From IMG/VR virus record IMGVR_UViG_2541047802_000015: 37,585 nucleotides of DNA, one strand, 5' to 3'. A program made the translations under genes and the position numbers. The stretch is from a virus (Duplodnaviria; Heunggongvirae; Uroviricota; Caudoviricetes). The notes under the pieces are model-generated. The model was not told the origin of the DNA. It saw only the letters and a program-made list of their open reading frames with translations, and made no database searches. Shown here in pieces: positions 565-35,198 of the stretch; position 1 is the first letter of the stretch, and every line of letters starts with the position of its first letter.

Positions 565-584
565 TATGAGGTTTCCTTTCTGTT

Positions 585-619
585 TATAAACGAAAACGCC
601 AGCCCTGTTCAGGCTGGCG
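585..619 (-). terminator. putative intrinsic terminator after the cbtA-cluster operon
   Basis: 8-bp GC-rich stem (597-604 pairs with 612-619), 7-nt loop, followed on the minus-strand RNA by UUUUCGUUUAUA; lies just downstream of the ORF ending at 649. Confidence 0.55.
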
Positions 620-648
620 TCAGGAGAATGGAGTCTGGTGAGTGAGAT

Positions 649-1445: not shown

Positions 1446-1533
1446 ACTGAAGATTTTCCTGATATGCAGAGATGAAAAATGGAAAAGTGGCGTGGTGAAA
1501 GCACCAGGCCGAGCAGAAGGTTATTCTGGAGAG

Positions 1534-1902
1534 TTACTTTTTCGTTTCGGGCGTCGGATAAACAGCCATATAAACGTAGCCACAACTGCCGAGGGTGTCG
1601 GCTTCGCAGGTCAGCCCTTTTGCATACAGCGTGACGGTATGCTGATGGCGGGGATTCAGTTCACCGCTGGTGAGCATGAGTTCCAGTTGTTTCATCAGCA
1701 GCGGAAAGGCCTGGTCCAGGTGGTACGAATCCGCGTCGCTGAACCGCCCTCTGATACCGGCGCGGTCGGCAAGGTAATGCAACCGGTTGCCTTCCTGTAC
1801 CAGACGGGCACCAAAACAGGGCGTCACGGTGCAGGGCAGTCCCCACCAGGTACGGTCGTTATTGTCGTCGGGAAGCGTTGTCCCGGGGAGTGTGTCTGAC
1901 AC
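1534..1902 (-). CDS. cbeA: CbeA/YeeU-family type IV antitoxin
   Basis: 122-aa protein beginning MSDTLPGTTLPDDN...WWGLPCTVTPCFGARLVQEGNRLHYLADRAG, matching the remembered YeeU/YfjZ family; paired with cbtA. Confidence 0.8.
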   Translation of the reverse strand: MSDTLPGTTLPDDNNDRTWWGLPCTVTPCFGARLVQEGNRLHYLADRAGIRGRFSDADSYHLDQAFPLLMKQLELMLTSGELNPRHQHTVTLYAKGLTCEADTLGSCGYVYMAVYPTPETKK

Positions 1903-1981
1903 GATAAAATCCTCACAGAAAATTGGTTAAGAATGGTCCGGTGGTGGCGATAATTCTGCTCTTCTGAATGCCCTTCCAGAC

Positions 1982-2203
1982 TCAGTTCAGGGTGACGCTC
2001 ATCAGCCGGACATACGGACCAAAACTGTCCTTCCGGCGTTCTGCAAACACGGCCAGCACACAGGGAATATCCTGTACTTCACGGCCGGTATATGTATCCG
2101 TGCTACCGTGCCAGCGGTATTTACCGGTACAGAACGGAAAAAGACGGGATGCAGGATGCTGACGGTGAATACGCATGGCTTCACCACGGGTGATGATTTT
2201 CAT
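1982..2203 (-). CDS. DUF987 (YeeT/YkfH-like) protein
   Basis: 73-aa protein MKIITRGEAMRIHRQHPASRLFPFCTGKYRWHG... typical of the small gene between radC-like and cbeA in CP4-type islands. Confidence 0.75.
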   Translation of the reverse strand: MKIITRGEAMRIHRQHPASRLFPFCTGKYRWHGSTDTYTGREVQDIPCVLAVFAERRKDSFGPYVRLMSVTLN

Positions 2204-2289
2204 GAGAATAGTCCTCCTGAATGTGAAAGTAAGAAACAGCTGAGAAAGAGAAACTGAAGTGATATGAAGGTGATTGTGACGGTGACGGG

Positions 2290-2766
2290 TTAAAGCAGAC
2301 CGTGTTCCGCAAAGGAGAAAACCTGGCTGCCACCGACTATCAGATGGTCCGGCACCCGGATATCCACCAGGCCCAGTGCCTGTACCAGACGTTCCGTGAT
2401 AAGGCGGTCTGCCTTGCTGGGTGTGACTTCACCGGACGGGTGATTGTGTGCCAGCACCACAGCAGCGGCATTGTGATACAGGGCGCGTTTAATCACTTCC
2501 CGGGGATGGACTTCCGTGCGGTTGATGGTGCCGGTGAAGAGGGTTTCACCGGCAATCAGCTGATTCTGGTTGTTCAGATACAGCACCCGGAACTCTTCCC
2601 GCTCCAGTCCCGCCATGTTCAGAATCAGCCATTCTCGTGCCGCACGGGTGGAGGTGAAGGCCACGCCGGGTTCATGAAGATGGCGGTCCAGGGTTTTCAG
2701 GGCCCGTTGAATGAGGCTGCGCTCACCGGGCGTCATTTCTCCGGGCAGAAAGGAAATCTGTTGCAT
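2290..2766 (-). CDS. RadC-like JAB-domain protein (YeeS/YkfG/YfjY family)
   Basis: 158 aa with the JAB metalloprotease motif HNHPSG and a conserved RadC-like C-terminal region. Confidence 0.8.
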   Translation of the reverse strand: MQQISFLPGEMTPGERSLIQRALKTLDRHLHEPGVAFTSTRAAREWLILNMAGLEREEFRVLYLNNQNQLIAGETLFTGTINRTEVHPREVIKRALYHNAAAVVLAHNHPSGEVTPSKADRLITERLVQALGLVDIRVPDHLIVGGSQVFSFAEHGLL

Positions 2767-2780
2767 TGTTCCGGCCCCTT

Positions 2781-3260
2781 TCAGTCAATGATGCGCATAA
2801 TGGCGCTGCATTCCGGATGCTGCAGGGCGTAATCCCGCAGCCGGTAATAATGGACCGTCATGGCATAACATTCCGTACGACAGGCATGATGGCTGTACGT
2901 CATCAGACAGGCGGCAATACCGGCAGCTTCCGGACTCATTTCAGCGCGGTTACCGTTCATGGCATTGAACAGTACCCATGTTTCGTCATCATCGTCATCC
3001 GGTTCAGGTGCCATAAATGCGCCACCGTTGTTCAGGGTGTACAGATTCCAGATGCCCCCGCAGTAGTCTTCGCACAGACGGTCCATCCAGCCGAAGACAC
3101 GGGGCTCCAGGGTCACCCACTGTGGAATGAGGCCAAAATGCTGCGGCCAGAAGCTGATACGTTGTTCATCAGGGACGGGAGTAGCAACCAGTTGGGGCTG
3201 GTTATTCCCTGGTGCTGTGGCTGAAGAAAGAGCAGTTGTGTTCTGAGAAACGATTTTCAT
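2781..3260 (-). CDS. antirestriction protein (KlcA/ArdB family)
   Basis: Acidic DDDDDE stretch and family-like core; start refined to the internal Met at 3260 (MKIVSQ...) preceded by AAGGA; the track ORF runs to 3317. Confidence 0.75.
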   Translation of the reverse strand: MKIVSQNTTALSSATAPGNNQPQLVATPVPDEQRISFWPQHFGLIPQWVTLEPRVFGWMDRLCEDYCGGIWNLYTLNNGGAFMAPEPDDDDDETWVLFNAMNGNRAEMSPEAAGIAACLMTYSHHACRTECYAMTVHYYRLRDYALQHPECSAIMRIID

Positions 3261-3312
3261 GAGTGAAATCCTTACAATGTGTATAAATGAGAGGAAATAA
3301 AGGCCGGGGGCT

Positions 3313-3359
3313 GACATGATCAGACATGAGATAAATGAAGGGGGATCCGTGAGATAAAT
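3313..3359. repeat. short direct repeats upstream of the klcA-like gene
   Basis: GACATGA at 3313 and 3323; TGAGATAAAT at 3327 and 3350; non-coding stretch between island genes and prophage genes. Confidence 0.4.
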
Positions 3360-3512
3360 AACGAATTGGAGTGGGTTAACATGGGTTCTGGTGAACAGAA
3401 CTGAAATTCTTTTCCGCTATACGATAGATAAGTCGGGCATTGAAATCATCCTTCCTGGCAACTTAGAATCGAGTTTGCTGAAACATGACCCGCAACAAAA
3501 AGGATGATTCCA

Positions 3513-3674
3513 ATGACTACTCAAAACAATAAGCATGATAGCCTGGATTACTCAGAAAAGCCCAAAAGCAAGCACATCGTGACGTTCGAGCGCGATTCCG
3601 GTAGAAAAGGAGAATCGTCTTCCTCTGCCAATAAAACCACTATGCCGGCAGCCCCTGCCCCAGGGAAAAAATAA
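3513..3674 (+). CDS. small hydrophilic ORF (53 aa), not in the ORF track
   Basis: ATG at 3513 preceded by AAGGA 8 nt upstream; in-frame to TAA at 3672-3674; below the track length cut-off; low-complexity Ser/Pro/Lys-rich product. Confidence 0.2.
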   Translation: MTTQNNKHDSLDYSEKPKSKHIVTFERDSGRKGESSSSANKTTMPAAPAPGKK

Positions 3675-3677
3675 ACA

Positions 3678-4310
3678 TCATTCATCGTTCGTTGCACGAA
3701 CGCGCCTGATCTCCACTCTGGCAATCTGATCTGCTGGAATATAGGTTGCCAGAGCTCCCCAGTACTTATCAACCACGCCTTTATACTCTTCCCATTCGTT
3801 ACTGCCTGAAGGGCTGCTGTGCGTGACGTAAAGAACCATATCGCCTTTATTCCCCAGGGTAAACGGACCGTTAGGCCACTCTTCAAAGTTCCCTGGCAGC
3901 CGTGACATCATACCGGAACCATCGCGAAGAATCACTCTGACCTCGGTAACGCTGAAGCCTGTTTGATCAAACATTGCCTGCCATGCTGAGCTGGTATCGT
4001 CAGACCATGAAATATCATTATTCCACAGTAATCTGTACATCCATTTGCGACCGTACCTGCGCCACCACGCACCGCATGTAACGGCACACAGAAGTGCTGG
4101 TGGTGTTGCCAGCCAGGCATTCAGACCTGCCCACATAACAGCCTGGTAAGCCATCATTGCTGTCAGGCCAAAAATCAGCGAAGAAAAAGTCACCTCAATG
4201 GGCTTGTGGTGATCCTTCAGTCCCACATTCGCAATAAAATACCCAATATAGCCACTGGTCAGGGTCACCAGTGTTGCCCATGGCAGATTTAACAACGAAA
4301 CGTCAAACAT
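3678..4310 (-). CDS. membrane protein of unknown function (3 predicted N-terminal TM helices plus soluble C-terminal domain)
   Basis: Start refined to the Met at 4310 (MFDVSLLNLPW...) with GGGAG RBS; hydrophobic N-terminal third; terminal gene of the leftward phage arm. Confidence 0.5.
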   Translation of the reverse strand: MFDVSLLNLPWATLVTLTSGYIGYFIANVGLKDHHKPIEVTFSSLIFGLTAMMAYQAVMWAGLNAWLATPPALLCAVTCGAWWRRYGRKWMYRLLWNNDISWSDDTSSAWQAMFDQTGFSVTEVRVILRDGSGMMSRLPGNFEEWPNGPFTLGNKGDMVLYVTHSSPSGSNEWEEYKGVVDKYWGALATYIPADQIARVEIRRVRATNDE

Positions 4311-4424
4311 ATTTTCTCCCTGCATCCTGAATACTAAAGAGAGAGCATAAAAAAAGCACGGTAAGGGGTCTACCGTGCTTTTATACAATAAGGAGATTTT
4401 TGAAAGGACTTTAACAAGCAGGAA

Positions 4425-4823
4425 TTATCTGGATTTGTTAACGTCTTTCGTCTCCTCTGGCAGATCTTCATCAAACAACCTGCCCTGCATCCGATCCAGT
4501 TCTTCTTTTCTGACCCGCTTAACCACGCTGTAGACCCACTGAAGCGAAACACCAAACTTGCGGGCCAGTTCGTGGTGGTTGCGTCCGTTAAACTCCCTGA
4601 AGATTTCCCGGTCGCGCTGACTGACCTTCCATACCATGCCCATCGGGAAATAAACGTTTTGCCCGCCCCAGACCTGCATCATTCGGTTCGCGACGGCCTG
4701 ACCAATCTGGTCGGCAATTGCGGGCTCAATATCAATAATCTCGCGAACGGTCTCAGAGGTATGCTGTGCCAGCTCCACCAGGAGTTCCGGCCCTTTACTT
4801 CGAAACTGATTCAGGTCGCTCAT
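4425..4823 (-). CDS. Mor/C-family transcriptional activator (candidate late-gene activator)
   Basis: 132 aa; C-terminal HTH region with DREIFREFNGRNHHELARKFGVSLQWVYSVV resembling the Mu Mor/C family. Confidence 0.65.
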   Translation of the reverse strand: MSDLNQFRSKGPELLVELAQHTSETVREIIDIEPAIADQIGQAVANRMMQVWGGQNVYFPMGMVWKVSQRDREIFREFNGRNHHELARKFGVSLQWVYSVVKRVRKEELDRMQGRLFDEDLPEETKDVNKSR

Positions 4824-5247
4824 GTTTTACTCCCGCAGCTCTGTGCTGCCACTTCTTCAGTTTCTCAATAACACTGCTTGCCTGTTCAGTATTGAGCCAG
4901 CGCAGGGCGCTGATGCCCGTTTCCCGCTTGATCCACCGCGCTAATGCATTTTCTGAACGGTCACGAACAATGCCGGCAGCAGCCATTTCAAGCCATAGCG
5001 CACGGATTTTCCTGGACTGCGGATGGTTATCCAGCGGTAAACCGGAGCTGGCTTTTCCGGCAGGCTTAACGCGAAAGCCTTTCCTTTTCATGGATTCCAG
5101 CACGCAGTTTAGTTGTGTGGTATCCATTCCTTTGGTTGAGGCTTTACCGGTCAGCCCCTGTAACATCTGGCGATAGGTGTCTTCATCCATACCCAGTTCA
5201 TTACGGGCAATATGAATGAGCTGGATAAGACGTTGTTTAGTCATCAT
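4795..5247 (-). CDS. Mu gp16/GemA-like protein (DUF1018-like)
   Basis: Start refined to 5247 (MMTKQRLIQLIHIARNELGMDEDTYRQ...) with AAGGAG RBS; similarity is from memory of the GemA family. Confidence 0.55.
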   Translation of the reverse strand: MMTKQRLIQLIHIARNELGMDEDTYRQMLQGLTGKASTKGMDTTQLNCVLESMKRKGFRVKPAGKASSGLPLDNHPQSRKIRALWLEMAAAGIVRDRSENALARWIKRETGISALRWLNTEQASSVIEKLKKWQHRAAGVKHERPESVSK

Positions 5248-5452
5248 CGTTGCTCCTTTTACCTGCGCCACCGATATAATCGACATATAAAGGAAGCGCC
5301 ACAGGCCAGCACAGGAACATCACCGACCAGCTAATCCAGTAGCCGGCACCACTGTAACGTGAATAAAACCCTGAACGGCGGTGCAGTTCAGCAGTACACC
5401 AACCGACAAAACAATACCAGAACAGGGCACATACAACAGATTCAGCCGTCAT
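5237..5452 (-). CDS. small membrane protein (about 71 aa, two hydrophobic segments)
   Basis: Internal Met at 5452 in track ORF 5237..5608; hydrophobic composition; weak RBS. Confidence 0.3.
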   Translation of the reverse strand: MTAESVVCALFWYCFVGWCTAELHRRSGFYSRYSGAGYWISWSVMFLCWPVALPLYVDYIGGAGKRSNDDD

Positions 5453-5672
5453 TCTGAATATCCCCCCAACTGATATGAATATTACGGGCAGCAATGACAG
5501 GGTCGTTATTCCACCATGCACCTGACATGTATTTTTCAACCTGTTCGCGTCCGGCAATAACACCAATTGTGATCCCCGGCCTGACGTTCTTAAAAAAGGC
5601 GCGGGCAAAAAGGTATCTGGCAGATATTCGGCAGGCTTTTAATTTCCGGCTGTTACCTGATAGCGTAATCAT
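5442..5672 (-). CDS. hypothetical small protein (76 aa)
   Basis: Start overlaps the stop of the upstream gene (ATGA arrangement at 5669-5672), suggesting coupling. Confidence 0.3.
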   Translation of the reverse strand: MITLSGNSRKLKACRISARYLFARAFFKNVRPGITIGVIAGREQVEKYMSGAWWNNDPVIAARNIHISWGDIQNDG

Positions 5673-6352
5673 CTGGCCTCCAGTTTCTGTTGTTCCTGCC
5701 CACTGACCGGGCGGTGCAGTCTGACGTTCTGCCCTTCACGAAACCCCGCATAGCGCGAGGCGTCGCCATTGCGGCTTCTTCCCGGTTTACGCGCCCTGGT
5801 GGTTTGCGTCTGCGGGTATTTATGTTCCAGCCACTGCTGCATCAGTTCACGCTCATCATCGGTCAGGGCAAAGGACTGTATTTCACTGATAACGGCCAGC
5901 ACCCAGCCTTCGGCAAACTGGTCTCCACGGCTGGTGCGGGTGGCGGTTTTTATTCTTTTGTTCTGTGCACTGATATACTGCTGACGCGCCTTTTTCAGCT
6001 GACGGGCCAGCACTTCCCAGGTGTATGCAGCCAGTGCCGCACGTTCCCGGTTGCCGTAGAACCCCACAGACGGATGCGTGCCGGGGTGAATGATGGAGTT
6101 AACACCAAATACCTCGCGGATGATGTTCATCAGGCCTGGCATGTAGCGCGGTGGACGGAGACTGCCTGTCGGCCAGTAGTGACTGATGGTTTCATCAATA
6201 TCACTCATAGCAATGTCGGAATGTGTGATGCCGTGAACATCCATCAGTTTACGGGCTCGGCGCAGTGCCAGAGCGGCCTCGTGCGGGTTGCCGGATGCGG
6301 CCAGCGCCAGCAACTTTTTCAGTTTCTCAATGTGTTTATTCTGGTCTGTCAT
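5669..6352 (-). CDS. phage protein, DUF2786-like N-terminal domain
   Basis: Start refined to 6352 (MTDQNKHIEKLKKLLALAASGNPHEAALALRRARKLM...); ATGA overlap with the upstream ORF stop. Confidence 0.5.
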   Translation of the reverse strand: MTDQNKHIEKLKKLLALAASGNPHEAALALRRARKLMDVHGITHSDIAMSDIDETISHYWPTGSLRPPRYMPGLMNIIREVFGVNSIIHPGTHPSVGFYGNRERAALAAYTWEVLARQLKKARQQYISAQNKRIKTATRTSRGDQFAEGWVLAVISEIQSFALTDDERELMQQWLEHKYPQTQTTRARKPGRSRNGDASRYAGFREGQNVRLHRPVSGQEQQKLEAR

Positions 6353-6564
6353 TGTTCTGTATCTCCGGTATTTTTCTGCCGTTTCCATGCCCGGACAGCG
6401 TCGGACAGCTCTTTCAGGCTGTATGCTGCTTTAAGCTTTTCCCATAACCACTGTGTTGTTATGTGCATCAGCAGGGCAGCCAGGGCTGCCCCCGCACTGA
6501 GGCATGTCGCCAGGCCAGTAAGAATCAGTATCCATGCGGTGATTTCCCTGAGTATGTCAGCCAT
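6349..6564 (-). CDS. small membrane protein (71 aa)
   Basis: One strongly hydrophobic segment (WILILTGLATCLSAGAALAALLM); translationally coupled to the next gene. Confidence 0.4.
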   Translation of the reverse strand: MADILREITAWILILTGLATCLSAGAALAALLMHITTQWLWEKLKAAYSLKELSDAVRAWKRQKNTGDTEQ

Positions 6565-6578
6565 TGAATGCCTCCCGG

Positions 6579-6875
6579 TTACTCGTTCGTGTAAATCACG
6601 CCCAGTCGTGCAGCCAGACGTTCCAGTTTTTTCTGTTTGTGGAAGTCAATCAGCCGGTCCATCCCCTGAAGGCGCAATTGCTCTGTCATGATTTCCACGT
6701 CTGCCAGCTCTGCCGCGAGGTCGCTTTCGCTGCCCTGTCCGTTCAGATTGCGGGCAGCACTGGCCGCCAGTTCAGCGGCCTCTTCTGTCAGTTTCAGGGC
6801 CTGTGCGTCCGGCCCGAAACGCTGCAGGGCCAGACGGTAGAGGGCGGTGCGGGTGAGTATGGTGTTCCGTGTCAT
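6579..6875 (-). CDS. MazG-like nucleotide pyrophosphohydrolase domain protein
   Basis: 98 aa, all-alpha; KLTEEAAELAAS and ELADVEIMTEQL resemble MazG-family EExxE/D motifs (from memory). Confidence 0.45.
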   Translation of the reverse strand: MTRNTILTRTALYRLALQRFGPDAQALKLTEEAAELAASAARNLNGQGSESDLAAELADVEIMTEQLRLQGMDRLIDFHKQKKLERLAARLGVIYTNE

Positions 6876-6884
6876 GCCGCGCCC

Positions 6885-7157
6885 TCAGTGCTTCCGGCTG
6901 ACGGTGATGTGCAGGCCGCCTTCTGCAGTGGTTTCCATCCGGTACGGCACCTCATGCTCTGCCGTGTGGGTGAGTGTGTTCATCAGTACCTGCAGGGCAG
7001 CCGCCTTTCCGTTGGTTGCCACAATGGCCTGTGTGGTCATGCTGATTAGCGCCGTCAGGACGTGCTTCACATCGGTGAGGTCGCGGCATTCACACTCGTT
7101 GACATAGTGTTCAACAAGGGTTCGGGTGCGCTGTCGTGCTTCCTGTGGGGTAATCAT
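6885..7157 (-). CDS. hypothetical protein (90 aa)
   Basis: ORF in the early operon frame series; overlaps neighbours by 4 nt. Confidence 0.4.
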   Translation of the reverse strand: MITPQEARQRTRTLVEHYVNECECRDLTDVKHVLTALISMTTQAIVATNGKAAALQVLMNTLTHTAEHEVPYRMETTAEGGLHITVSRKH

Positions 7158-7348
7158 TGCGAGTCCTCCCTGTCAGGGCGGGAGAATTCCATGACGGGCA
7201 CGTCTGCCGAAAAATGCTGGCTGCAGTACGGGCAGACCAGGGTGACGCGTACCGCAGGGATGTGGTATTTACCGGACATCACGGCGATGGCGCTGTGAAA
7301 ACGCAGGGCTGTTATATCCCTCTCGCACTGAATACATTTAAATATCAT
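7154..7348 (-). CDS. zinc-ribbon-like small protein (CxxC...CxxC)
   Basis: 64 aa with CIQC and CPYC pairs; GAGGAG RBS upstream. Confidence 0.45.
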   Translation of the reverse strand: MIFKCIQCERDITALRFHSAIAVMSGKYHIPAVRVTLVCPYCSQHFSADVPVMEFSRPDREDSQ

Positions 7349-7445
7349 GATTTAATTCTCCTCTGTTTCCGGCGTGCAGAAGCCCGCGGCGCTGACGCCG
7401 GAATAAAAAAGAAAATGTTTTTATTAAATAATTAACGTGGTGTGT

Positions 7446-7976
7446 TTACTGCACATCCTGCTCAAAAGGAATTATTGAAAAATCCTCAATGTCGCTTTTA
7501 ATGGAAATACCGGGAATATTTTTCACGGCCTCTTTTTCATTCAGGATAGCGTCTTTATTTATTTCCTCTTTTACACGAATAAAGCGCTCAAGCCCCAGAC
7601 GTCTCAGTAATTCAATAACATTATCCGCCCCACGGATACTGACTGATGGCGGACGGTTTCGCCACTGCACCTCGCCGGTGGTAAGGTTAGCGAACTTCAC
7701 CTTCCCGTTGCCGGTCAGTTCATCACGGTGCGCCTCACACCATGTCTGGATACCGGACTGCAGTTCGGCCATGCGTTTTTTCAGGCTCTCGGTGAGCGGG
7801 GCATAACGTGCGGTGATATCGCCAATGGCGTCATTCATTTCTGTTTCAGCCCTGACCAGTTCACGTTGTGCGTCACCGAGTAGTCTGATTCCCTCAATGA
7901 CCTCTTCGCGTGTCCCTGGTACCCAGAGTGCCGCTGCGGCCTTGATACGTTTTGCCCCTTTTGTACTTTTTGCCAT
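7446..7976 (-). CDS. gam: Gam-like host-nuclease inhibitor (Mu Gam family)
   Basis: 176 aa; the ETEMNDAIGDITARYAP and KSDIEDFSIIPFEQ regions closely resemble my memory of Mu Gam. Confidence 0.8.
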   Translation of the reverse strand: MAKSTKGAKRIKAAAALWVPGTREEVIEGIRLLGDAQRELVRAETEMNDAIGDITARYAPLTESLKKRMAELQSGIQTWCEAHRDELTGNGKVKFANLTTGEVQWRNRPPSVSIRGADNVIELLRRLGLERFIRVKEEINKDAILNEKEAVKNIPGISIKSDIEDFSIIPFEQDVQ

Positions 7977-8003
7977 ATTTTATGATTTCTCCGGTTGTGC
8001 TGA

Positions 8004-8273
8004 TTACCACAAAGATTCCGGCCACACGACGCGACAGCCGTGCAGTTCGAAAACGCCCTGACGGAAATATCCCCTGTGGTCATGTCCGGTATACAGATAA
8101 CAGGCCTTTCCCTGCTCAAGCATGCGCATGCAATGCGCACTCCGGGAAACGCGGATGACAGGTTTGTTACCCCTGATGGTGATGCTTTGTACATCCGTGT
8201 TCGTCGCCTTAAGCGCCATAATGGCTGACTGCACTTTGCTGATTTGCTGGTTGATACCTGTGGTGGATTTCAT
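8004..8273 (-). CDS. hypothetical protein between B and gam (Kil-position)
   Basis: 89-aa ORF; position is analogous to kil in Mu, with no sequence-level support. Confidence 0.4.
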   Translation of the reverse strand: MKSTTGINQQISKVQSAIMALKATNTDVQSITIRGNKPVIRVSRSAHCMRMLEQGKACYLYTGHDHRGYFRQGVFELHGCRVVWPESLW

Positions 8274-8275
8274 TA

Positions 8276-9442
8276 TTAAACTCCTTTGACAACGTCAGCG
8301 TTGACCTGTGGAACCCCGATTTCAGCGGCCAGATTCATGGCGGCTATTACCAGGTTACTGACGGCCAGCGGATACAGCAGGCTGACCATATTTTTACGAT
8401 GACTTCCCGGATTGCTCAGGCGGGCACGTATGGCATCCACTGCGCTGGCGTCCATAATGTCCGTCAGTTGTTTACCGGCCCGTTGCAGTTTGAACGTCAG
8501 AAATTCTTCAAGGTTATTGTCCAGAGGCAGAAGTTCGACCACCTCACAGCGCTGAACGACTTCACGGACTTCCATATTGCGTTCAGACAGTTTTGTCGCC
8601 AGTTCCGGCTGGCCAATCAGCACGATGGACAGCAGTTTTTTGAAACCGGACTCCAGCTCAAAAAAGCGTTTGAGGTGTTTCAGTGTCGGAATGGGCAGAC
8701 TGTGGGCCTCCTCAATCACCAGAACGTGGCTGAACCCCGCCTGGCTGCTGTCTTTCAGGACGCGATGCAACTGGCGAAAGCGGGCGTCCTGACTGCGTCT
8801 GATGCTTTCCAGTGGTGCGATGGTACTGATAATGGCTTCGGCAATAGCTGCTGCCTTCAGGGTTTTCCCTTTCACATCGTTGTCTTCCATAGCGATGATG
8901 TATGGCTCGATAACAATTACCGGCGCATTCTCGCGGTTAATACGTTCAGTCAGGTCGCGGCGCAGCGTGGATTTACCCGCACCGGACTCACCGATGACGG
9001 CCATAAACCCACCATGACGGGCTGTCTGGTACAGCGCCTCACGCACGTAGCGAATGTCCGGGGTGGTGAACACATCATCAGAACCCTGCATGGCTTCATC
9101 GGCGAACGGGTCACGGAAAAGACCAAACGCTTTTTTGGTTGCTGGAAATAACACCTGTTTTTTGAGTAACATATTCTCTTCCTCACTGAGGCTCGTTTTA
9201 TCTGTGGTACCCGCTGTACGGGGCGTGGCCGCGCCCTGTACAGCATCAAAACTCTTCGTTGTATCAATCCCCTGACTTTCCAGCCAGGACGCAAGACGCC
9301 GGCGCACTTCTCCGGGGCTGGTGCGGGGCCACGCGTTATGATTCACAATCTGGGCCAGCGTGGCCTCAGAAACATCGACAGCTCTCGCCGCCACCGCCTG
9401 TGGAATACGGGCCTCTTTCAGTTGCTGCTTCAGTACCAGCAT
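8276..9442 (-). CDS. transposition ATPase B-like protein (HTH plus P-loop)
   Basis: Walker A GESGAGKST and Walker B-like HVLVIEEAH; start refined to ATG at 9442 with GGAGG RBS; directly downstream of the transposase. Confidence 0.75.
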   Translation of the reverse strand: MLVLKQQLKEARIPQAVAARAVDVSEATLAQIVNHNAWPRTSPGEVRRRLASWLESQGIDTTKSFDAVQGAATPRTAGTTDKTSLSEEENMLLKKQVLFPATKKAFGLFRDPFADEAMQGSDDVFTTPDIRYVREALYQTARHGGFMAVIGESGAGKSTLRRDLTERINRENAPVIVIEPYIIAMEDNDVKGKTLKAAAIAEAIISTIAPLESIRRSQDARFRQLHRVLKDSSQAGFSHVLVIEEAHSLPIPTLKHLKRFFELESGFKKLLSIVLIGQPELATKLSERNMEVREVVQRCEVVELLPLDNNLEEFLTFKLQRAGKQLTDIMDASAVDAIRARLSNPGSHRKNMVSLLYPLAVSNLVIAAMNLAAEIGVPQVNADVVKGV

Positions 9443-12482: not shown

Positions 12483-12797
12483 TTACAAACGACTACCTGA
12501 AATGACACGTTGGTTGATTTCGTTAATGCGATCCTGTGCACGTGCCATCTCGTTACTGTGGGCCATGGCGATCTGCAGCAACTGGATGCCCGGTGCGAAA
12601 CGCCCGTTTTCCAGTTTCAGGGCCAGTCCTTCTTCAATGAGGGTGTTGAGTGCCCGGTTGATGTTTGCCGGTGACTCGTGCAGTGCTGCCGCCAGTTCAC
12701 CATTGGAAATACCGTTCAGGGCATGACCGCGCAGCGCTTTGAGTACCCGGAGGATGCGACTGCCGGAGCTTGAAACATTCGTCTTACTCATCTGCAT
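12483..12797 (-). CDS. winged-helix DNA-binding protein
   Basis: 104 aa; ILRVLKALRGHALNGISNGELAAAL...INRALNTLIEEGL resembles a MarR/IclR-type wHTH. Confidence 0.45.
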   Translation of the reverse strand: MQMSKTNVSSSGSRILRVLKALRGHALNGISNGELAAALHESPANINRALNTLIEEGLALKLENGRFAPGIQLLQIAMAHSNEMARAQDRINEINQRVISGSRL

Positions 12798-13557: not shown

Positions 13558-13591
13558 CCGGAAAGCACTGTACTTTCCGGTTATGGCTTTT
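13558..13591 (+). terminator. putative intrinsic terminator between convergent repressor and dam genes
   Basis: CCGGAAAG/CTTTCCGG 8-bp stem with 7-nt loop, followed by TTATGGCTTTT on the plus strand. Confidence 0.45.
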
Positions 13592-14354
13592 AGAAATTGC
13601 AGATCACCAGCTCACGGCGTGGAGTTGATTTGCCTGCCAGACTGTAGTTGATGTTCACTGTCTGTATGTTCAGTCCAGTGAACACCTCGCGCATCTGCGG
13701 GATGTCGTTCACCGAAATTATCATCTTTCCTCTGATGCACCGGGCCAGCTCTGCCAGCCGCGAGTAGTTCCCTTCAGGAAAATCCACACCATAGCCTTCT
13801 GTACCCAGATACGGCGGGTCACAGTAGAACAGCGTGTGCGGACGGTCATAGCGCTCAATGCACTGTTGCCAGTCCATGTGTTCTATCACCGTTCTGGAAA
13901 GCCGCAGGTGTGCCGCTGACAGTTCTTCCTCGATACGCAGCAGGTTGAAGCGTGGCGGGGATGTGGTGGAGGTGCCGAAGCTGTGCTCTGCCACCTTGCC
14001 GCCAAACGCCTGCTTCTGGAGGTAGTAGAACCGTGCTGCACGCTGGATATCCGTCAGTGTTTCTGTCGGGGTGATCTGCAGCCATTTGTAGATCTGCCGG
14101 CTGACCAGCGCCCATTTGAACTGGCGGACAAATTCTTCCAGATGATGTTTTACCACCCGATACAGATTTACCAGTTCACCATTGATATCGTTAATGACTT
14201 CGAGCTTACCAGGTGTCTTAAGAAAATAGAGCGCTGCTGCGCCGCAGAACGGCTCCACGTAACATTCATGCGCCGGAAACAGCGGCAGGATGTGTTTTGC
14301 CAGGCGACGTTTGCCACCAATCCATGGAACGATGGGTAATGTCTGCATTTTCAT
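13590..14354 (-). CDS. dam: DNA adenine methyltransferase (Dam family, N6-adenine, D12 class)
   Basis: 254 aa; catalytic DPPY motif and N-terminal FxGxK-type AdoMet-binding region; no restriction endonuclease partner in the window. Confidence 0.85.
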   Translation of the reverse strand: MKMQTLPIVPWIGGKRRLAKHILPLFPAHECYVEPFCGAAALYFLKTPGKLEVINDINGELVNLYRVVKHHLEEFVRQFKWALVSRQIYKWLQITPTETLTDIQRAARFYYLQKQAFGGKVAEHSFGTSTTSPPRFNLLRIEEELSAAHLRLSRTVIEHMDWQQCIERYDRPHTLFYCDPPYLGTEGYGVDFPEGNYSRLAELARCIRGKMIISVNDIPQMREVFTGLNIQTVNINYSLAGKSTPRRELVICNF

Positions 14355-14459
14355 AATCTGTAAGCCTTTTACAATTATTAAAAATATGGCAGGCTAGTCT
14401 GGTCTCGCGAGACTGACTGAACCCCGGTCGGCTCACAGCGCATTCCTGTGGGACGATGG

Positions 14460-14500
14460 CCAGCCCGGTGGGTCCGAAGCACCGGGCTGGTCGTTCTTTC
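14460..14500 (+). terminator. GC-rich hairpin with downstream T-tract (plus-strand terminator-like) upstream of dam
   Basis: 11-bp stem (14460-14470 pairs with 14480-14490), 9-nt loop, then TCGTTCTTTC; no annotated plus-strand gene ends here. Confidence 0.35.
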
Positions 14501-14546
14501 ATGATGCGGCAGGGATGAAGTGATTTCTGTTAATGTGGTTTAGGGA

Positions 14547-14762
14547 TTATCCGGGGCGATTTTCTGACCTTATCTGGTCCAGGGCATAAGTGATCCCTTC
14601 TGCAAAAACAGAAGTATCAAACTGCTTTTGTATTTCCTGAAAATGAACAGTGGCACGACAGACACTCAGTTCTCCGCGATGTAACCGGATAATATCTTCC
14701 AGAACATTGTTCACTGCTTCGGCACGGCGCTGATGTTCTGTTAACGTTAATCGGGGATTCAT
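14547..14762 (-). CDS. hypothetical protein (71 aa)
   Basis: ATG at 14762 preceded by AAGGAG with 6-nt spacer; no family recognised. Confidence 0.4.
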   Translation of the reverse strand: MNPRLTLTEHQRRAEAVNNVLEDIIRLHRGELSVCRATVHFQEIQKQFDTSVFAEGITYALDQIRSENRPG

Positions 14763-15139
14763 GATGCACTCCTTAAATGATGATTTTTATGTACTCACCG
14801 GCAAAATATTCTGCCGATTACTGAACACGCATCCGGCTCCTCAGGTTTTGATTTATTCTGGTTTTTTCGATATCCCGGACCAGGTTGATCACGACAGAAA
14901 AAGTGCCGGTATTTTATTGATACGCTGATATGGCTTCGGGATAACAGCTATATTCGTTACTCTCAGTTGCTGGCTGTGGGAGCGGCTGATGTCGTCCTCA
15001 CGGAAAAAACGCTCTGTCTGCTCAATGCCATGCCGACCTTTCTGCAGCCCCGGCCCGTACCATTTAAAGAGTCACTTCTGGATGCAGTAAAAACCGGTGA
15101 AAATGCAGTCATCGCTGAATGCGTATCCCGGATTATGCG

Positions 15140-15688
15140 TTACGTGTTTAATGAACGTAAGTGAGGTTTATCCGCTGTCTGCATAATCCCGATAGCCAGT
15201 GCGAGGGGAAGCAATTCCGGGGAAACTCTTTCAAACAGCGATTCCCATTCTCCTCTCGCCATCACTCTGTCCAGCCCGCCCTCCAGCTGCATTTCAGCAA
15301 TCTTCCTGATTTCCCGGAACAACGCCGCTTTGATCTCTTCATGCTCAGCTTTATTTTCCGGTGTCAGAATGTATTCGTCGAAGAACCGGGGAGGCTGGTT
15401 AACGGGGGGCATGTTCACCGGGATGTGTTCCTGTATCCCGTACTCCGGGGCTGAAAAACATTTTGTTGTCTGACCGGTGAGTTTGCGTAACACCTTCATG
15501 AGTTGCTCCTGAAGCAGCTCATTCGTCCGACAGATACGCTCGTCGTCCACAACTGCGGCATCGACAATGACGCTTTTTCCAAATTCCTTTTTCACCATCT
15601 CTTTTATACGCGTCAGAACGTAACTTTTACCGCTGCCTACAGGCCCGGACACTCTGACGGTGATGGTCGGCTTCGGTGTGACTGTCAT
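15140..15688 (-). CDS. small P-loop NTPase/kinase-like protein (182 aa)
   Basis: Start refined to the Met at 15688 with AAGGAG RBS; Walker A GPVGSGKS near the N-terminus and Walker B-like VIVDAAVVDDE. Confidence 0.5.
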   Translation of the reverse strand: MTVTPKPTITVRVSGPVGSGKSYVLTRIKEMVKKEFGKSVIVDAAVVDDERICRTNELLQEQLMKVLRKLTGQTTKCFSAPEYGIQEHIPVNMPPVNQPPRFFDEYILTPENKAEHEEIKAALFREIRKIAEMQLEGGLDRVMARGEWESLFERVSPELLPLALAIGIMQTADKPHLRSLNT

Positions 15689-15747
15689 TCTGTATCTCCT
15701 TTGTGAGTGATCCAGCGTGTATTCTGCATACCCCGAACACGCCTCTC

Positions 15748-15792
15748 TCTTAACGCGCTTTAAAATCCTCCGCGCCACGCTTTTGCCATGCT
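15748..15792 (+). promoter_or_regulatory. putative late promoter upstream of the lysis cassette
   Basis: Conserved block TCTTAACGCGCTTTAAAATC, 19-nt spacer, then CATGCT; same architecture recurs at 23148, 29058 and 35148. Confidence 0.5.
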
Positions 15793-15819
15793 GTCTCCAC
15801 ACAACAAGGAGACATTTTC

Positions 15820-16170
15820 ATGAAACCATTCACTTCCCTTATCGTTGACGTACAAAAAACCCGCCTGCGTGGATGGCTTGTTGCGGCCGTGCTGCTGCTC
15901 CTCATCATCGCGCTGGTCTCACCCCAGCAGTTGCCGGTGGTGGTGTACAAGCTCTCTCTCATCTCCCTCGCCGCCGTGCTCGGCTACTGGCTGGACCGCT
16001 CACTCTTCCCGAAGGCCCGTCCGGGGCAGTACCTGAAGCATGACGAGCGCCTCATGGCTGAGGGGCGCTGGCCCGTACAGACCGGCCTTCACCTGGTGTT
16101 TTCTGCTGCGTTAATCCGCCGTGCACTGATTGTTGCAGCTGTCTGTCTGGCTGTTGCGATGGGGCTTTAA
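15820..16170 (+). CDS. putative holin / lysis membrane protein (first gene of the late arm)
   Basis: 116 aa with 2-3 hydrophobic helices; AAGGAGA RBS; immediately precedes the transglycosylase. Confidence 0.45.
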   Translation: MKPFTSLIVDVQKTRLRGWLVAAVLLLLIIALVSPQQLPVVVYKLSLISLAAVLGYWLDRSLFPKARPGQYLKHDERLMAEGRWPVQTGLHLVFSAALIRRALIVAAVCLAVAMGL

Positions 16171-16172
16171 TC

Positions 16173-16907
16173 ATGAACTGGCCACAGAGCACCTGGATTG
16201 TATGCATGTCCCTGAAACTGGCTTTCGAAGCCTTTCTGGTCTTCATCAGAACCGAACGCCTGTCAGTCCGTGTCGGGACCTTTCTGGTTCATATGGCATG
16301 GGTATTCTTTGTCGCAATGTTGCTCTGGTGTGGCGGCTTCTTCAGTCAGGCCCGCGCAGCGCAGCCTCCGCAGGCTGCGCTGCAGTATCGCGATGATGTG
16401 ATCCGTAATGCCCGGCTTGAATGGGGGCTGTCTGCGCCGGTGGCCGATTTCGCCGCGCAACTGCATCAGGAAAGCGGCTGGCGGACTGATGCGGTCTCGC
16501 CGGTGGGCGCTCAGGGGCTGGCGCAGTTTATGCCCGCCACCGCTGACTGGATAAGCCAGTTGATGCCGGCGTTGAGCAGTCGTGAGCCGTTTAATCCGGC
16601 ATGGGCCATCCGGGCGCTGGTCAGCTATGACCGCTGGCTGTGGCAGCGCATCAGCGCCGCCAGTGACTGCGAGCGTATGGCCATGACACTGTCGGGCTAT
16701 AACGGTGGTCTGGGTTGGGTACAACGGGACAGGCGGCTCGCATCACAGAAAGGTCTGGACAGCACCCGCTGGTTCGGACATGTCGCCACGGTGAATGCCG
16801 GACGCAATGCTGCCAGCTGGCGGGAGAACCGCCATTATCCGCAGCGCATCCTGCACGAACTGGCCCCCCGTTATCTGACATGGGGGGGCGGCAGCTGTGT
16901 GGACTAA
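16173..16907 (+). CDS. lytic transglycosylase endolysin (SLT domain) with N-terminal signal/SAR-like segment
   Basis: SLT motif region ESGWRTDAVSPVGAQGLAQFMP; hydrophobic WVFFVAMLLWCGGFF followed by ARA-AQ; true start may be the internal Met at about 16293. Confidence 0.75.
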   Translation: MNWPQSTWIVCMSLKLAFEAFLVFIRTERLSVRVGTFLVHMAWVFFVAMLLWCGGFFSQARAAQPPQAALQYRDDVIRNARLEWGLSAPVADFAAQLHQESGWRTDAVSPVGAQGLAQFMPATADWISQLMPALSSREPFNPAWAIRALVSYDRWLWQRISAASDCERMAMTLSGYNGGLGWVQRDRRLASQKGLDSTRWFGHVATVNAGRNAASWRENRHYPQRILHELAPRYLTWGGGSCVD

Positions 16908-22549: not shown

Positions 22550-23008
22550 ATGGCTTCCGATAACCTGGTCAGTGTCACCATTAATGATAAATCCCTGCGC
22601 CGGAGCCTCCGTGCGCTGGATCTGGCTGCCACAGACATGGAGCCTGCGATGCGCAAAATCGCCGGAACCCTGCTGGCGGAAACACAGTTTAACTTTCTTG
22701 ATGAGGGGCGTCCGGGGTGGATGCCCTCGCTGGCAGCGGAAGAACGTAACGGACAGACACTGCAGGATACCGGGCGTCTGATGGGGTCAGTATCAACCGA
22801 GCATGACGACCGGCAGGCTGTTGTGGGGACCAACGTTGTTTACGGTGCCATTCACCAGTTCGGGGGTAAAACGGGGCGTAATGAGTCTGTTGAACTTCCG
22901 GCCCGCCCGTTCCTGCCGGTGACGGAGGATGGAGAGCTACAGCCTGAAGTGGTAGTCCCCATCCTCGATACCATTGTCCGCCATCTTGAAGCAGCGGCCC
23001 GTCGCTGA
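22550..23008 (+). CDS. virion morphogenesis protein (Mu G-like)
   Basis: 152 aa; position after the F-like gene; resembles the Mu G family. Confidence 0.65.
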   Translation: MASDNLVSVTINDKSLRRSLRALDLAATDMEPAMRKIAGTLLAETQFNFLDEGRPGWMPSLAAEERNGQTLQDTGRLMGSVSTEHDDRQAVVGTNVVYGAIHQFGGKTGRNESVELPARPFLPVTEDGELQPEVVVPILDTIVRHLEAAARR

Positions 23009-23054
23009 GTTTTCTCTCTTCAGGCGGGTGATTTATCATTGCCAGCGAATGAGG

Positions 23055-23097
23055 GGCTGTATTACCTTTATAAAGGCTTTACAGCCTCTGTTTTATA
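23055..23097 (+). terminator. large imperfect palindrome with T-tract after the G-like gene
   Basis: GGCTGTA...TACAGCC arms enclose the perfect palindrome CCTTTATAAAGG (23065-23076), followed by TCTGTTTTATA. Confidence 0.4.
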
Positions 23098-23147
23098 ACT
23101 GCCTCCGGTTCACCACATTGCTTTCCCTGTCCTTCTCCCCTGATGTT

Positions 23148-23192
23148 TTCTAAAGCAGATTAAAATCGCCGGGCCCGCATTTCTCACAAACT
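23148..23192 (+). promoter_or_regulatory. putative late promoter upstream of the I-like gene
   Basis: Block TTCTAAAGCAGATTAAAATC, 19-nt spacer, then CAAACT followed by GTCTCC; matches the element upstream of the lysis cassette. Confidence 0.45.
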
Positions 23193-23222
23193 GTCTCCGA
23201 CAACATAACGCGGGACAGCAAA

Positions 23223-24338
23223 ATGTCAGCCATTCACATTTTTAAAGCCGGTACTCATACCGATATGCACGGCAAAAAACTGCCGTTCACGCCAGACGAT
23301 CTTGCCGCCTGCGTGAAAGCCTATGACCCGTCCGTCCATGAAGCACCACTCGTGATTGGTCATCCCAGAACGGAAGACCCGGCGTGGGGCTGGGTGAAAG
23401 CCCTGTCGCTCAGCGGCGTCGATCTGATGGCAGAGCCTGCCCAGCTGGACCCGCAGTTTGCTGAGATGGTCACCGACGGACGATTCAAAAAAGTGTCTGC
23501 CTCTTTCTACCTCCCGGATTCACCGTCCAATCCGAAGCCCGGCGTGCTCTACCTGCGCCATGTGGGCTTTCTTGGGGCACAGCCACCTTCCGTCAAAGGA
23601 CTGAAACAGGTGTCCTTCAGTGAGCAGGAAGAAGGTGTGGTGGAGTTCGCCGACTGGCAGGCCATCACGAATGCCTCACTGTGGGGAAAGCTGCGCGATT
23701 TTCTGATCGCCCGCTTCAGTCTGGACGAAGCAGAAAAAGTTCTGCCGGAATGGCAGCTCAACAGTCTGCGCGAAGAGGCGTACCGCGACACACCGTCGCA
23801 GGATGCAGCAGGTGCGCAATTCAGTGAGACAGGCCAGGTGCCGTCTTCCGCAAGTAACGAGGAATCATCGATGACAAAAGAAGAGATTGAAGCCCTTCAG
23901 GCGGAGAACCGCCGCCTGAAGCAGCAGGCTGCTGATCGCGATGCGCGTGATGCACAGGTCAGACAGGAGCAACTGCATAAGGACAATGTGGCCTTTGCAG
24001 AAAAACTGGTCGCAGAGGGCCGTCTGGCTCCCCGCGCCTCCTCCGTGGTGGTTGCCCTGCTGGATTCCGTCGCCGGTGGCGACAAGCCGGTGGAGTTTGC
24101 TGAGGGGGAAAGCCGCACACCGCTGGCCACCGCCTTCCGTTCGCTGCTCTCCGACGGGGAGCCGGTGATGAACTTCGCCGAACAGGCCACGAAGGAGCGT
24201 GTCGGCGACACGGTGAAAGTGGATGTGACGGAGTTTGCAGAAGCCGACCCTGACCGTCTGGCACTGCACCAGAAGGCTGTGGAACTGTCGAAAAAAGAAG
24301 GCATCAGCTATGAGGCTGCTGTCACACGCTGCCTGTAA
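23223..24338 (+). CDS. head protease/scaffold protein (Mu I-like)
   Basis: 371 aa; N-terminal region resembling the Mu I family and an acidic/coiled-coil C-terminal scaffold-like region. Confidence 0.75.
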   Translation: MSAIHIFKAGTHTDMHGKKLPFTPDDLAACVKAYDPSVHEAPLVIGHPRTEDPAWGWVKALSLSGVDLMAEPAQLDPQFAEMVTDGRFKKVSASFYLPDSPSNPKPGVLYLRHVGFLGAQPPSVKGLKQVSFSEQEEGVVEFADWQAITNASLWGKLRDFLIARFSLDEAEKVLPEWQLNSLREEAYRDTPSQDAAGAQFSETGQVPSSASNEESSMTKEEIEALQAENRRLKQQAADRDARDAQVRQEQLHKDNVAFAEKLVAEGRLAPRASSVVVALLDSVAGGDKPVEFAEGESRTPLATAFRSLLSDGEPVMNFAEQATKERVGDTVKVDVTEFAEADPDRLALHQKAVELSKKEGISYEAAVTRCL

Positions 24339-28227: not shown

Positions 28228-28748
28228 TGTCAAAGATTGAGATAAACCGCATCACGAATGCCAACATCTATCTGGATGGTACTAACCTGCTGGGACGGGC
28301 TGAGGAAGTTAAACTCCCCGATGTCTCCATGATTATGCAGGAACACAAGGCGCTGGGGATGGTGGGTAAGGTGGAACTCCCGGCTGGTTTTGACAAACTG
28401 GAAGGCGAAATCAAATGGAACAGCTTTTACCGCGATGCGATGCTGTCTGCCGCGAACCCGTACAGGTCGCTGGCACTGCAGTGTCGTTCCAGCGTCCAGC
28501 GCTACAGCTCGCAGGGGCTGATTGACGAAATCCCGCTGGTCACCTTCCTGACGATTATGTTCAAGAAGAACCCGCTGGGGACGTTCAAACAGCACGAGAA
28601 CGCCGAGTTCTCCAGTAGCTTCACATGCACGTATATCAGACAGGTACTGGATGGTGAAGAGCTGCTGCAACTGGACTATCTGGCCAACATCTTCCGGGTC
28701 GGCGGTGTTGATCAACTGACTGACTACCGTATCAATATCGGGGGCTGA
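28227..28748 (+). CDS. tail tube protein
   Basis: 173 aa; immediately after the sheath gene with overlapping start/stop. Confidence 0.75.
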   Translation: MSKIEINRITNANIYLDGTNLLGRAEEVKLPDVSMIMQEHKALGMVGKVELPAGFDKLEGEIKWNSFYRDAMLSAANPYRSLALQCRSSVQRYSSQGLIDEIPLVTFLTIMFKKNPLGTFKQHENAEFSSSFTCTYIRQVLDGEELLQLDYLANIFRVGGVDQLTDYRINIGG

Positions 28749-29032: not shown

Positions 29033-29038
29033 CATCAC

Positions 29039-29060
29039 AGGGGCTCCGGCCCCTTCTTCT
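29039..29060 (+). terminator. short GC hairpin with T-rich tail inside the tail operon
   Basis: 6-bp stem (AGGGGC pairs with GCCCCT) with TCCG loop, then TCTTCTT; overlaps the start of a putative late-promoter block. Confidence 0.3.
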
Positions 29061-29102
29061 TAATCTCCTTTAATATCCGTCACGCGCTTCTCCCGACATA
29101 CT
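29058..29102 (+). promoter_or_regulatory. putative internal late promoter upstream of the tail chaperone gene
   Basis: Block TCTTAATCTCCTTTAATATC, 19-nt spacer, then CATACT followed by GCCC; about 27 nt leader to ATG 29130 with AGGAG RBS. Confidence 0.45.
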
Positions 29103-29129
29103 GCCCTGAACTTACACAGGAGCACAATC

Positions 29130-29465
29130 ATGTCACAGACCCCATCCGATACTTTTAAATTGTCTTATCCCTTCACCACTGCTGCAGGCACCAGAATTGA
29201 GCTGGTTGAACTGAAACGCCTGACGGTAAAAGACCTGAAGCAGGTGCGCAAAATCAGCAAAAACCCGGCAGACTGGGACGAACCGCTGATTGCCCGCAGT
29301 ACTGGTCTTCTCCCGGAAGATCTCGACAATATGGATCTGGCTGATTACCTGCAGTTACAGAAACGATTTCAGCTCATCACGGGGATGGGTGAGAGCGACA
29401 AAGGCGCTGACGCAGGCGCAGGGGCTGCTGGCGAGATGGTTCCGGTTTCAGCCGGGGGAGATTGA
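29130..29465 (+). CDS. tail assembly chaperone
   Basis: 111 aa, acidic; position between tube and tape-measure genes; AGGAG RBS; overlapped by a second-frame ORF. Confidence 0.6.
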   Translation: MSQTPSDTFKLSYPFTTAAGTRIELVELKRLTVKDLKQVRKISKNPADWDEPLIARSTGLLPEDLDNMDLADYLQLQKRFQLITGMGESDKGADAGAGAAGEMVPVSAGGD

Positions 29466-29547
29466 TGCCCTCGATACTGACGATCTGGAGATGTGGCTGG
29501 AGCAGGCTGAAGAGCAAATAAAAAGCGAGTACGGCGACAAATCATAG
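29290..29547 (+). CDS. overlapping +1-frame ORF, candidate frameshift extension of the tail chaperone
   Basis: +1 frame is open through the chaperone 3' end and continues 82 nt past its stop; only the distal about 28 codons are likely to be translated as a fusion. Confidence 0.3.
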   Translation: MPAVLVFSRKISTIWIWLITCSYRNDFSSSRGWVRATKALTQAQGLLARWFRFQPGEIDALDTDDLEMWLEQAEEQIKSEYGDKS

Positions 29548-29552
29548 TACAG

Positions 29553-29573
29553 ACAGCCGCCAGTAGCGGCTGT
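29553..29573 (+). other. hairpin between chaperone region and tape-measure gene
   Basis: ACAGCCGC/GCGGCTGT 8-bp stem with 5-nt loop; weak T-tract after it. Confidence 0.3.
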
Positions 29574-29622
29574 TCTGCGTTATCCCCTCACGTCTTTTCA
29601 CCTTCCCCGGAGGTTAACCACT

Positions 29623-35144: not shown

Positions 35145-35147
35145 GCT

Positions 35148-35192: not shown

Positions 35193-35198
35193 GCCCCC

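Follow-up and report, generated by a model that had tools for sequence, protein, structure and literature searches.

Four copies of a ~45-bp element lie in front of late genes in this prophage, and the question they raise is whether they are late promoters and, if so, which activator they answer to. The window (the whole stretch of 37,585 nucleotides analysed here) is E. coli DNA. Its bases 1-3322 belong to a CP4-like island with cbtA/yeeU and the remainder is a BcepMu-like transposable prophage, with relatives in 622 of the 5,426 complete E. coli genomes. Over the 1.8 kb compared (14400-16200), E. coli Ec1117 (NZ_CP126602) matches the window at 100%. The early genes of the prophage are on the minus strand, with the mor gene last, and the late genes are on the plus strand from 15820 onwards. 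The island, which many E. coli genomes share at 99.9% identity, carries antirestriction and JAB genes together with the cbtA/yeeU toxin-antitoxin pair. Past base 3322 comes the prophage end, and an open reading frame (3678-4388, minus strand; phrog_12870, function unknown), preceded by TATAAA, is situated between mor and that end.

On re-reading of the DNA, the coordinates of the four copies (15748-15792, 23148-23192, 29058-29102, and 35148-35192), their sequences, the 19-nt gap and the four hexamers given in the original prediction were all exact. Each copy consists of a 20-bp block followed by exactly 19 nt and then by CATGCT, CAAACT, CATACT, or AATACT, respectively. The consensus proposed for the block (TCTTAA-N4-CTTTAAWATC) matched three copies without mismatch but did not describe the copy upstream of the I-type protease gene (23148), which departs from it at 4 positions. 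The block of this I copy, TTCTAAAGCAGATTAAAATC, was missed when up to 3 mismatches to the consensus were allowed; it retains the core TAA-N6-TTAA-A-ATC. The strings said to be shared downstream were present, with CTGTCTCC in the lysis and I copies and ATACTGCCC in both tail copies.

All four elements can be written as a 16-bp dyad, YTTAA-N6-TTAAW (with the left arm TCTAA in the I copy), in which the second TTAA is exactly 23 nt from a -10-like hexamer of the form nAnnCT. We refer to the four plus-strand elements as P_lys, P_I, P_TAC, and P_W. The predicted Mor box of P_lys is CTTAA-CGCGCT-TTAAA (15749-15764), a dyad conserved in relatives, and is followed by CATGCT (15787-15792) with a TG two nucleotides upstream. 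The predicted box of P_I is TCTAA-AGCAGA-TTAAA (23149-23164), with CAAACT at 23187-23192. For P_TAC the predicted box is CTTAA-TCTCCT-TTAAT (29059-29074) and the hexamer CATACT (29097-29102), and for P_W they are CTTAA-ACGCCT-TTAAT (35149-35164) and AATACT (35187-35192), with the gpW ATG at 35199 following 6 nt later. All four boxes are supported by the dyad, by a position weight matrix (PWM), and by a composite pattern. The PWM built from the four sites gave them scores of 39-45 bits, while the next best position in the window scored 9 bits. The composite pattern TAA-N6-TTAA-N24-A-N3-T matched the window 6 times where shuffled sequence gave an expectation of 0.05, and 0 of 100 shuffles had as many as 6 matches. 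The six are the four elements, the lysis dyad read in reverse, and a site at 14542 on the minus strand, all of them outside genes taken as real, so the motif is not as frequent in coding or unrelated DNA as in front of the late units. A string at 4416 on the minus strand, immediately past mor, weakly resembles the box and was dropped for its wrong spacing.

The genes downstream of the elements bore out the functions assigned to them. They encode a holin and an SLT endolysin (holin ATG at 15820), a Mu-I-type head protease (ATG at 23223), a tail assembly chaperone (ATG at 29130), and gpW/gp25 (gpW ATG at 35199). All four elements are on the strand of the late genes and point to the genes downstream, with P_lys directly upstream of the holin gene. 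The late region is packed, with four gaps longer than 40 nt, three of which hold an element (23009-23222, 29033-29129, and 35145-35198); the remaining one, 157 nt after the tail chaperone gene (29466-29622), is without an element. A terminator-like hairpin, AGGGGCTCCGGCCCCT, occupies 29039-29054 on the plus strand and its T-rich tail enters the Mor box of P_TAC (29039-29058), an arrangement found likewise in KP12, BcepMu, and phiE255. Terminator-like hairpins were also observed upstream of P_I, at 22992-23007 and 23074-23087. The hairpins by P_TAC and P_I recall Mu Pm, where an early terminator and the Mor site overlap. An Rfam scan of the whole window gave no matches.

As core promoters the elements are incomplete. 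The hexamers have the key A2 and T6 of a -10 and are weak, with 3-4 of 6 matches to TATAAT. At a 17-bp spacing, 0-2 of the 6 positions match TTGACA at the four elements, which leaves them without a -35. A sigma-70 scan that required both hexamers reported none of the four, a result that fits the absent -35 and yet is not positive evidence. No A/T-rich proximal UP subsite is present upstream of the dyads, where the flanks are T/C-rich (ctctc, gatgtt, ccttct, and gagct). Such an A/T-rich upstream subsite is an accessory feature of Mu Pm and does not define the class.

We compared the window with KP12, PhiKM, Phi06_2974B, BcepMu, phiE255, and Ralstonia phage YO107_2, and with 15 prophage loci of other species that were collected with the major head protein as query. 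The motif scan of the window and these relatives showed that the element recurs at the equivalent late-gene places with the same 23-nt spacing. In KP12, PhiKM, and Ralstonia phage YO107_2, the dyad and an nAnnnT hexamer exactly 23 nt further on precede the holin, protease, chaperone, and gpW genes. The partial records (Phi06_2974B and 13 enterobacterial species, among them Symbiopectobacterium, Erwinia, Pantoea, Mixta, and Photorhabdus) carry the element at every such place that is present, from two to four of them per record. No site was found at the Enterobacter asburiae locus, the record of which is without these upstream regions. A Neisseriaceae bacterium has the element upstream of the holin, protease, and chaperone genes, three of the four places, and no gpW homologue was found at that locus. 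In BcepMu and phiE255 the holin and protease sites are clear, and at each of the tail promoters of these phages one half-site is degenerate while the 23-nt spacing and the hexamers (GACAAT and CAACAT) are kept.

The box is also present at all four places in the Mu-like, colinear Pasteurella phage AFS-2018a (9611, 16821, 22252, and 28204). The boxes before the chaperone (22252) and gpW (28204) genes of this phage are the perfect 16-bp palindrome TTTAAAGCGCTTTAAA, and its hexamers are near-consensus (TATACT, TATTCT, TAAACT, and TAATAT). Further box-like repeats were seen in the same genome at 16724 and within the spacer of the 22252 site. The sequence between dyad and hexamer is unconstrained, as at P_TAC, where CGTCACGCGCTTCTCCCGA, TGCCAGTCCCACCACCAGA, and TCTTCCTGTCTTCATTCGA occur among relatives. 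Its length is held constant: among 165 dyad-only matches in 585 kb of relatives, 82 had nAnnnT at offset 23, and the counts at other offsets were at most 17, except for 33 at offset 25 from the same sites. Conserved coding sequence accounts for a PWM match within the KP12 invertase gene and for a comparable match in Mu gin, and both were set aside.

This geometry is the one known from phage Mu. The composite pattern derived from the window had two matches in the Mu genome, one of which is the annotated middle promoter Pm (9175-9216). Pm reads AGTAA-AGCCGG-TTAAT (preceded by C), 22 nt, and TATCCT, and its TTAA is exactly 23 nt from the hexamer, as in the window. The Mor site consists of two 5-bp inverted repeats with a G/C-rich hexanucleotide between them and is bound by a Mor dimer; it is a 16-bp element centred at -43.5, in place of a -35 (Ma and Howe, PMC4390567). 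It lies at -51 to -36, and Pm has a -10 and no -35 (Mo and Howe, PMC4287176). We mapped the Mu +1 to 9224 and checked this mapping with the published bases -57G and -54A, which places TATCCT at -13 to -8 and the start 51 nt beyond the base with which the 16-mer begins. The dyads of the window have the same 5-N6-5 form, with G/C-rich 6-bp spacers (CGCGCT, AGCAGA, TCTCCT, and ACGCCT). The distance from dyad to hexamer equals that of Pm and is invariant in relatives, and from it a centring at -43.5 is predicted here.

The likeness to Pm thus extends to the 16-bp dyad with its TAA...TTAA core (the P_lys box of BcepMu is CTAAAGCCGATTAAA), the 23 nt to the hexamer, the lack of a -35, the terminator hairpin adjoining the box, and the position of the activator gene at the end of the early operon. 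The two systems differ in deployment. Mu has one such promoter, which drives a middle operon encoding C, whereas the window phage has at least four, which would directly drive the late morphogenesis and lysis operons. The window sites also differ from Pm in having no A/T-rich alpha-CTD subsite upstream.

The original prediction had drawn an analogy with the four C-dependent late promoters of Mu (Plys, PI, PP, and Pmom). In function this analogy held, since late operons and a Mor/C-type activator are found in both. Mu also has four late promoters with a -10 and without a -35, and a Mor/C-family activator bound just upstream of the -35 position, as is predicted for the window (PMC4461284). In both phages the lysis and protease I operons are headed by such promoters and pairs of promoters share extra sequence. 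In sequence the analogy failed: the TTAA-N6-TTAA boxes of the window do not match the Mu C box (CCATAAcCCC; TTAT-N6-ATAA at Pmom). The other two C promoters of Mu are at P and mom, while those of the window are at the tail chaperone and gpW genes. By sequence and geometry, the elements are of the Pm/Mor type and not of the C-box type. A resemblance of layout was also noted to phages P2 and 186, which have four late promoters with a conserved dyad before a weak core promoter and share P2-type tail genes. The late promoters of P2 and 186 are activated by Ogr/B, a zinc-finger activator, through an Ogr box (TGT-N12-ACA) centred near -55; box and activator are unrelated to those considered here, neither such a box nor such a protein was seen, and the promoters lie elsewhere among the tail genes.

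The window encodes one candidate for the activator, at 4425-4823 on the minus strand (132 aa; Pfam Mor PF08765, 1.1e-43; phrog_532, late activator). In tblastn searches with this protein, gp01 of BcepMu, and both Mor and C of Mu as queries, the window and the complete BcepMu genome each yielded a single Mor/C gene. Mu has a separate C protein, whereas none was found for the window phage by tblastn within the window. The single protein is ~31% identical to Mu Mor and 35% identical to C, and its recognition helix is unlike both; because of this low identity and the differing helix, we took its specificity from the co-occurrence of helix and box. The TAA-N6-TTAA box goes together with a putative recognition helix VS[LM]QW[IV]Y in the window phage, BcepMu, and the Pasteurella phage. 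In Pseudomonas phage JBD25 the sequence at the helix position is LTPSSIY; the TAA-N6-TTAA box was sought in this genome and was absent, and the repeated box found there is a different one, C-TTCCAAAAGAC. By these sequences JBD25 is a second specificity class among single-Mor transposable phages, and across the phages compared the type of box follows the type of Mor helix. In JBD25 the box lies upstream of 13443, 21792, and 27322, at lysis-side, I, and tape-measure genes.

The elements could also be late promoters whose dyad is bound by another phage DNA-binding protein or a host factor, with Mor acting elsewhere. The window encodes several further helix-turn-helix proteins, with an IclR-like one at 12483-12797 and a GemA-like protein as the candidate binders, and the recognition helix of the window Mor is, as noted, unlike that of Mu Mor. 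We nevertheless consider this unlikely, as the form of the dyad, its TAA/TTA core, and its distance to the -10 are those of the footprinted Mor site of Mu Pm, and the box tracks the Mor helix from phage to phage. Moreover, no late activators other than Mor/C proteins are known in Mu-like phages (PMC4287176). According to a cryo-EM preprint, Mor and C bind as tetramers to an imperfect dyad immediately upstream of the -35 region and touch alpha-CTD, the beta flap, and sigma region 4 (10.1101/2025.05.02.651988); this is the mechanism assumed for the window elements.

The gpW ATG follows the hexamer by 6-7 nt, without a Shine-Dalgarno sequence, in all relatives from which the region was recovered (11 and the Pasteurella phage); the arrangement occupies 35187-35201 in the window, 30811-30825 in locus L003, and 28240-28255 in the Pasteurella phage, and is found in others. 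The predicted start of P_W coincides with the gpW start codon, and the gpW mRNA of the window is probably leaderless. The protease ATG likewise lies 6-7 nt after the hexamer in BcepMu, phiE255, the Ralstonia phage, and the Neisseriaceae locus, which suggests that their protease mRNAs are candidates for leaderless messages.

RNA that reads through any of the four window promoters is predicted to fold, with z-scores of -2.6 to -3.6. In each of the fold-back inverted repeats found by folding prediction (15780-15825, 23180-23228, 29090-29135, and 35175-35204), the sequence immediately before the predicted start pairs with the Shine-Dalgarno sequence or the start region. A transcript begun at the predicted +1 would be without the 5' arm, and its 5' end is predicted to be unstructured. 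As the arm is absent from native starts and present in read-through, RNA that enters from elsewhere (e.g., from the repressor side) is predicted to be translationally silent. In Photorhabdus the arms differ and still pair. Formal counting of pairs in the P_I hairpin was given up, since the Photorhabdus sequence pairs in another register than the others. Fold-back inhibition of this kind is familiar from IS10 and IS50, where the 5' arm precedes the start site used by the element itself and only external transcripts sequester the ribosome-binding site. There it is the transposase that is protected, whereas here it would be phage late genes, and the arrangement is a prediction from folding.

These inverted repeats across the hexamer and start region of all four elements, and the terminator-like hairpins that adjoin two of them, could be taken to mean that the elements are not promoters at all and serve instead as terminators or processing sites at operon boundaries, as sites for the transposase or a nucleoid protein, or as translational operators. 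We regard this as highly improbable: the A/T arms of the dyad are too weak for an RNA hairpin, the strict 23-nt coupling of dyad and nAnnnT across a free spacer is the signature of a promoter, the identical architecture in Mu is a mapped promoter, and all sites face downstream genes. Least credible of all is a reading in which an alternative host sigma factor uses the elements as promoters without any phage activator, with TTTAAWATC as an unusual -35-like and nAnnCT as a -10 element. In its favour are the 3' half of the block, which is asymmetric (A-ATC) and strongly conserved, and GCCGATTAA of BcepMu, which loosely resembles the sigma-28 -10 consensus GCCGATAA; against it, this resemblance is limited to the Burkholderia group, the sigma-28 -35 element is absent, the upstream half-site is equally conserved, the perfect palindrome of the Pasteurella phage speaks for a symmetric oligomer and not a sigma factor, and no starts were recorded at these sites in the uninduced J2315 lysogen.

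That lysogen is B. cenocepacia J2315, which carries BcepMu, and its dRNA-seq list of starts in the uninduced state (PMC4603805, file 3) was the one set of transcript data found. In that list one start falls 21 nt upstream of the neighbouring gp20, and the four predicted BcepMu late promoters have no entry for this uninduced culture. The silence fits dependence on an activator but is weak evidence, because a lysogen would keep late genes silent whichever prophage it carried. The literature searched, which did not cover the J Mol Biol 2004 description of BcepMu, held nothing specific on the late promoters of BcepMu, and we found no description in it of late regulation in this prophage family.

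We therefore return to the Mor-family protein. Each element is, very probably, a sigma-70 promoter without a -35 that depends on the phage's own Mor-family activator. The original proposal of an activator site plus core promoter for a single Mor/C protein found support in silico, as a prediction, in the missing -35, the Pm geometry, the conserved spacing, and the single gene. Mor binding, activator dependence, and the start sites at the four elements are what we infer from this comparison. As the last gene of the early operon, mor would be expressed so that its product accumulates late in early transcription. A Mor dimer or tetramer would then bind the 16-bp dyad at about -51 to -36 (centre -43.5), by homology with Pm, where it would replace the -35 and recruit RNA polymerase through alpha-CTD and sigma region 4. 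The polymerase would use the nAnnCT hexamer at -13 to -8 and start ~7-8 nt downstream, which by analogy with Pm puts the predicted starts at 15799-15801, 23199-23200, 29109-29110, and 35199-35200. A purine lies 7 nt after every hexamer (A15799, G23199, A29109, and A35199). The four late units would run from lysis through packaging to the early head genes, from the head protease to the tail tube, from the tail chaperone to gpV, and from gpW to the tail fibres. With Pm-type boxes and a single activator, the middle tier of Mu would be skipped, giving a cascade of two tiers (early, Mor, late) against the three of Mu.

Four is probably a minimum for the number of such promoters, given the reverse-read lysis dyad and a box before the dam leader. 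The reverse-read P_lys dyad has a candidate divergent hexamer, CAGAAT (15721-15726, minus strand), at exactly 23 nt (15721-15764), and the lysis site may be a bidirectional Mor-dependent promoter. CAGAAT is followed by a Shine-Dalgarno sequence and then by the ATG at 15697 of an open reading frame (15140-15697, minus strand; phrog_3787) that contains GSGKS. CAGAAT, CAGGAT, or CATGAT was observed at the same offset in five different, unrelated upstream contexts of relatives.

The candidate fifth site (14501-14544, minus strand; 20.5 bits) consists of the box CCTAA-ACCACA-TTAAC (14544-14529), 23 nt, and CATCAT. On the dam side, box and hexamer are 23 nt apart in the window and PhiKM, 23-24 nt if the lysis dyad serves in reverse, and 30 nt in the KP12 group; with this variation among relatives the box was not established as a regular fifth promoter and stays a candidate. 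Downstream of the site come a leader, conserved and structured, and then the gene of a D12 Dam methylase (13590-14354, minus strand). The leader is ~140 nt long (about 14355-14494, minus strand) and opens with a strong hairpin, CCAGCCCGGTG...CACCGGGCTGG, with a variable loop. The stem shows compensatory changes in relatives (CCAGCCCGG/CCGGGCTGG vs CCAGTCCGG/CCGGACTGG), and a second hairpin, GTCTCGCGAGAC, comes after it. The leader had no Rfam match, and the 78-aa open reading frame that overlaps it (14266-14502, minus strand) is probably spurious. By analogy, dam may be a late DNA-modification gene comparable to mom; methylases replacing mom have been described in other Mu-like prophages (PMC3299994).

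The mechanism class proposed here is already well understood from Mu, so the core result is expected and the side observations are more original. Joined into one reading (an interlock on late proteins, a leaderless gpW mRNA, a bidirectional lysis dyad that brings in Dam, and an ancestral circuit with one activator), these observations make a tentative picture that we would not favour as a whole, its joint truth being possible and rather doubtful. If it were true, late proteins would be made only from Mor-initiated transcripts, the 5' end of the gpW mRNA would be set by its promoter, the lysis dyad would fire both ways, and the Dam methylase, as the counterpart of mom, would come under the same activator. 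On this reading, these features together with the Pm-type box shared by beta- and gamma-proteobacterial phages would make the one-activator, two-tier circuit ancestral, and the Mor and C of Mu would be the products of a later duplication.

Apart from that joint reading, the comparison across phage genomes shows the Mor box of Mu Pm, as a sequence element, to be an old and widely shared operator, and suggests that the three-tier cascade of Mu is the derived state. For this prophage family, which occurs also in many other Enterobacterales and in Burkholderia and Ralstonia, the analysis offers a map with one activator and at least four promoters, with starts predicted to within 1-2 nt. For annotation, the box offers a marker of late operons in Mu-like prophages, and expression of mor should suffice to switch on the lysis and virion genes.
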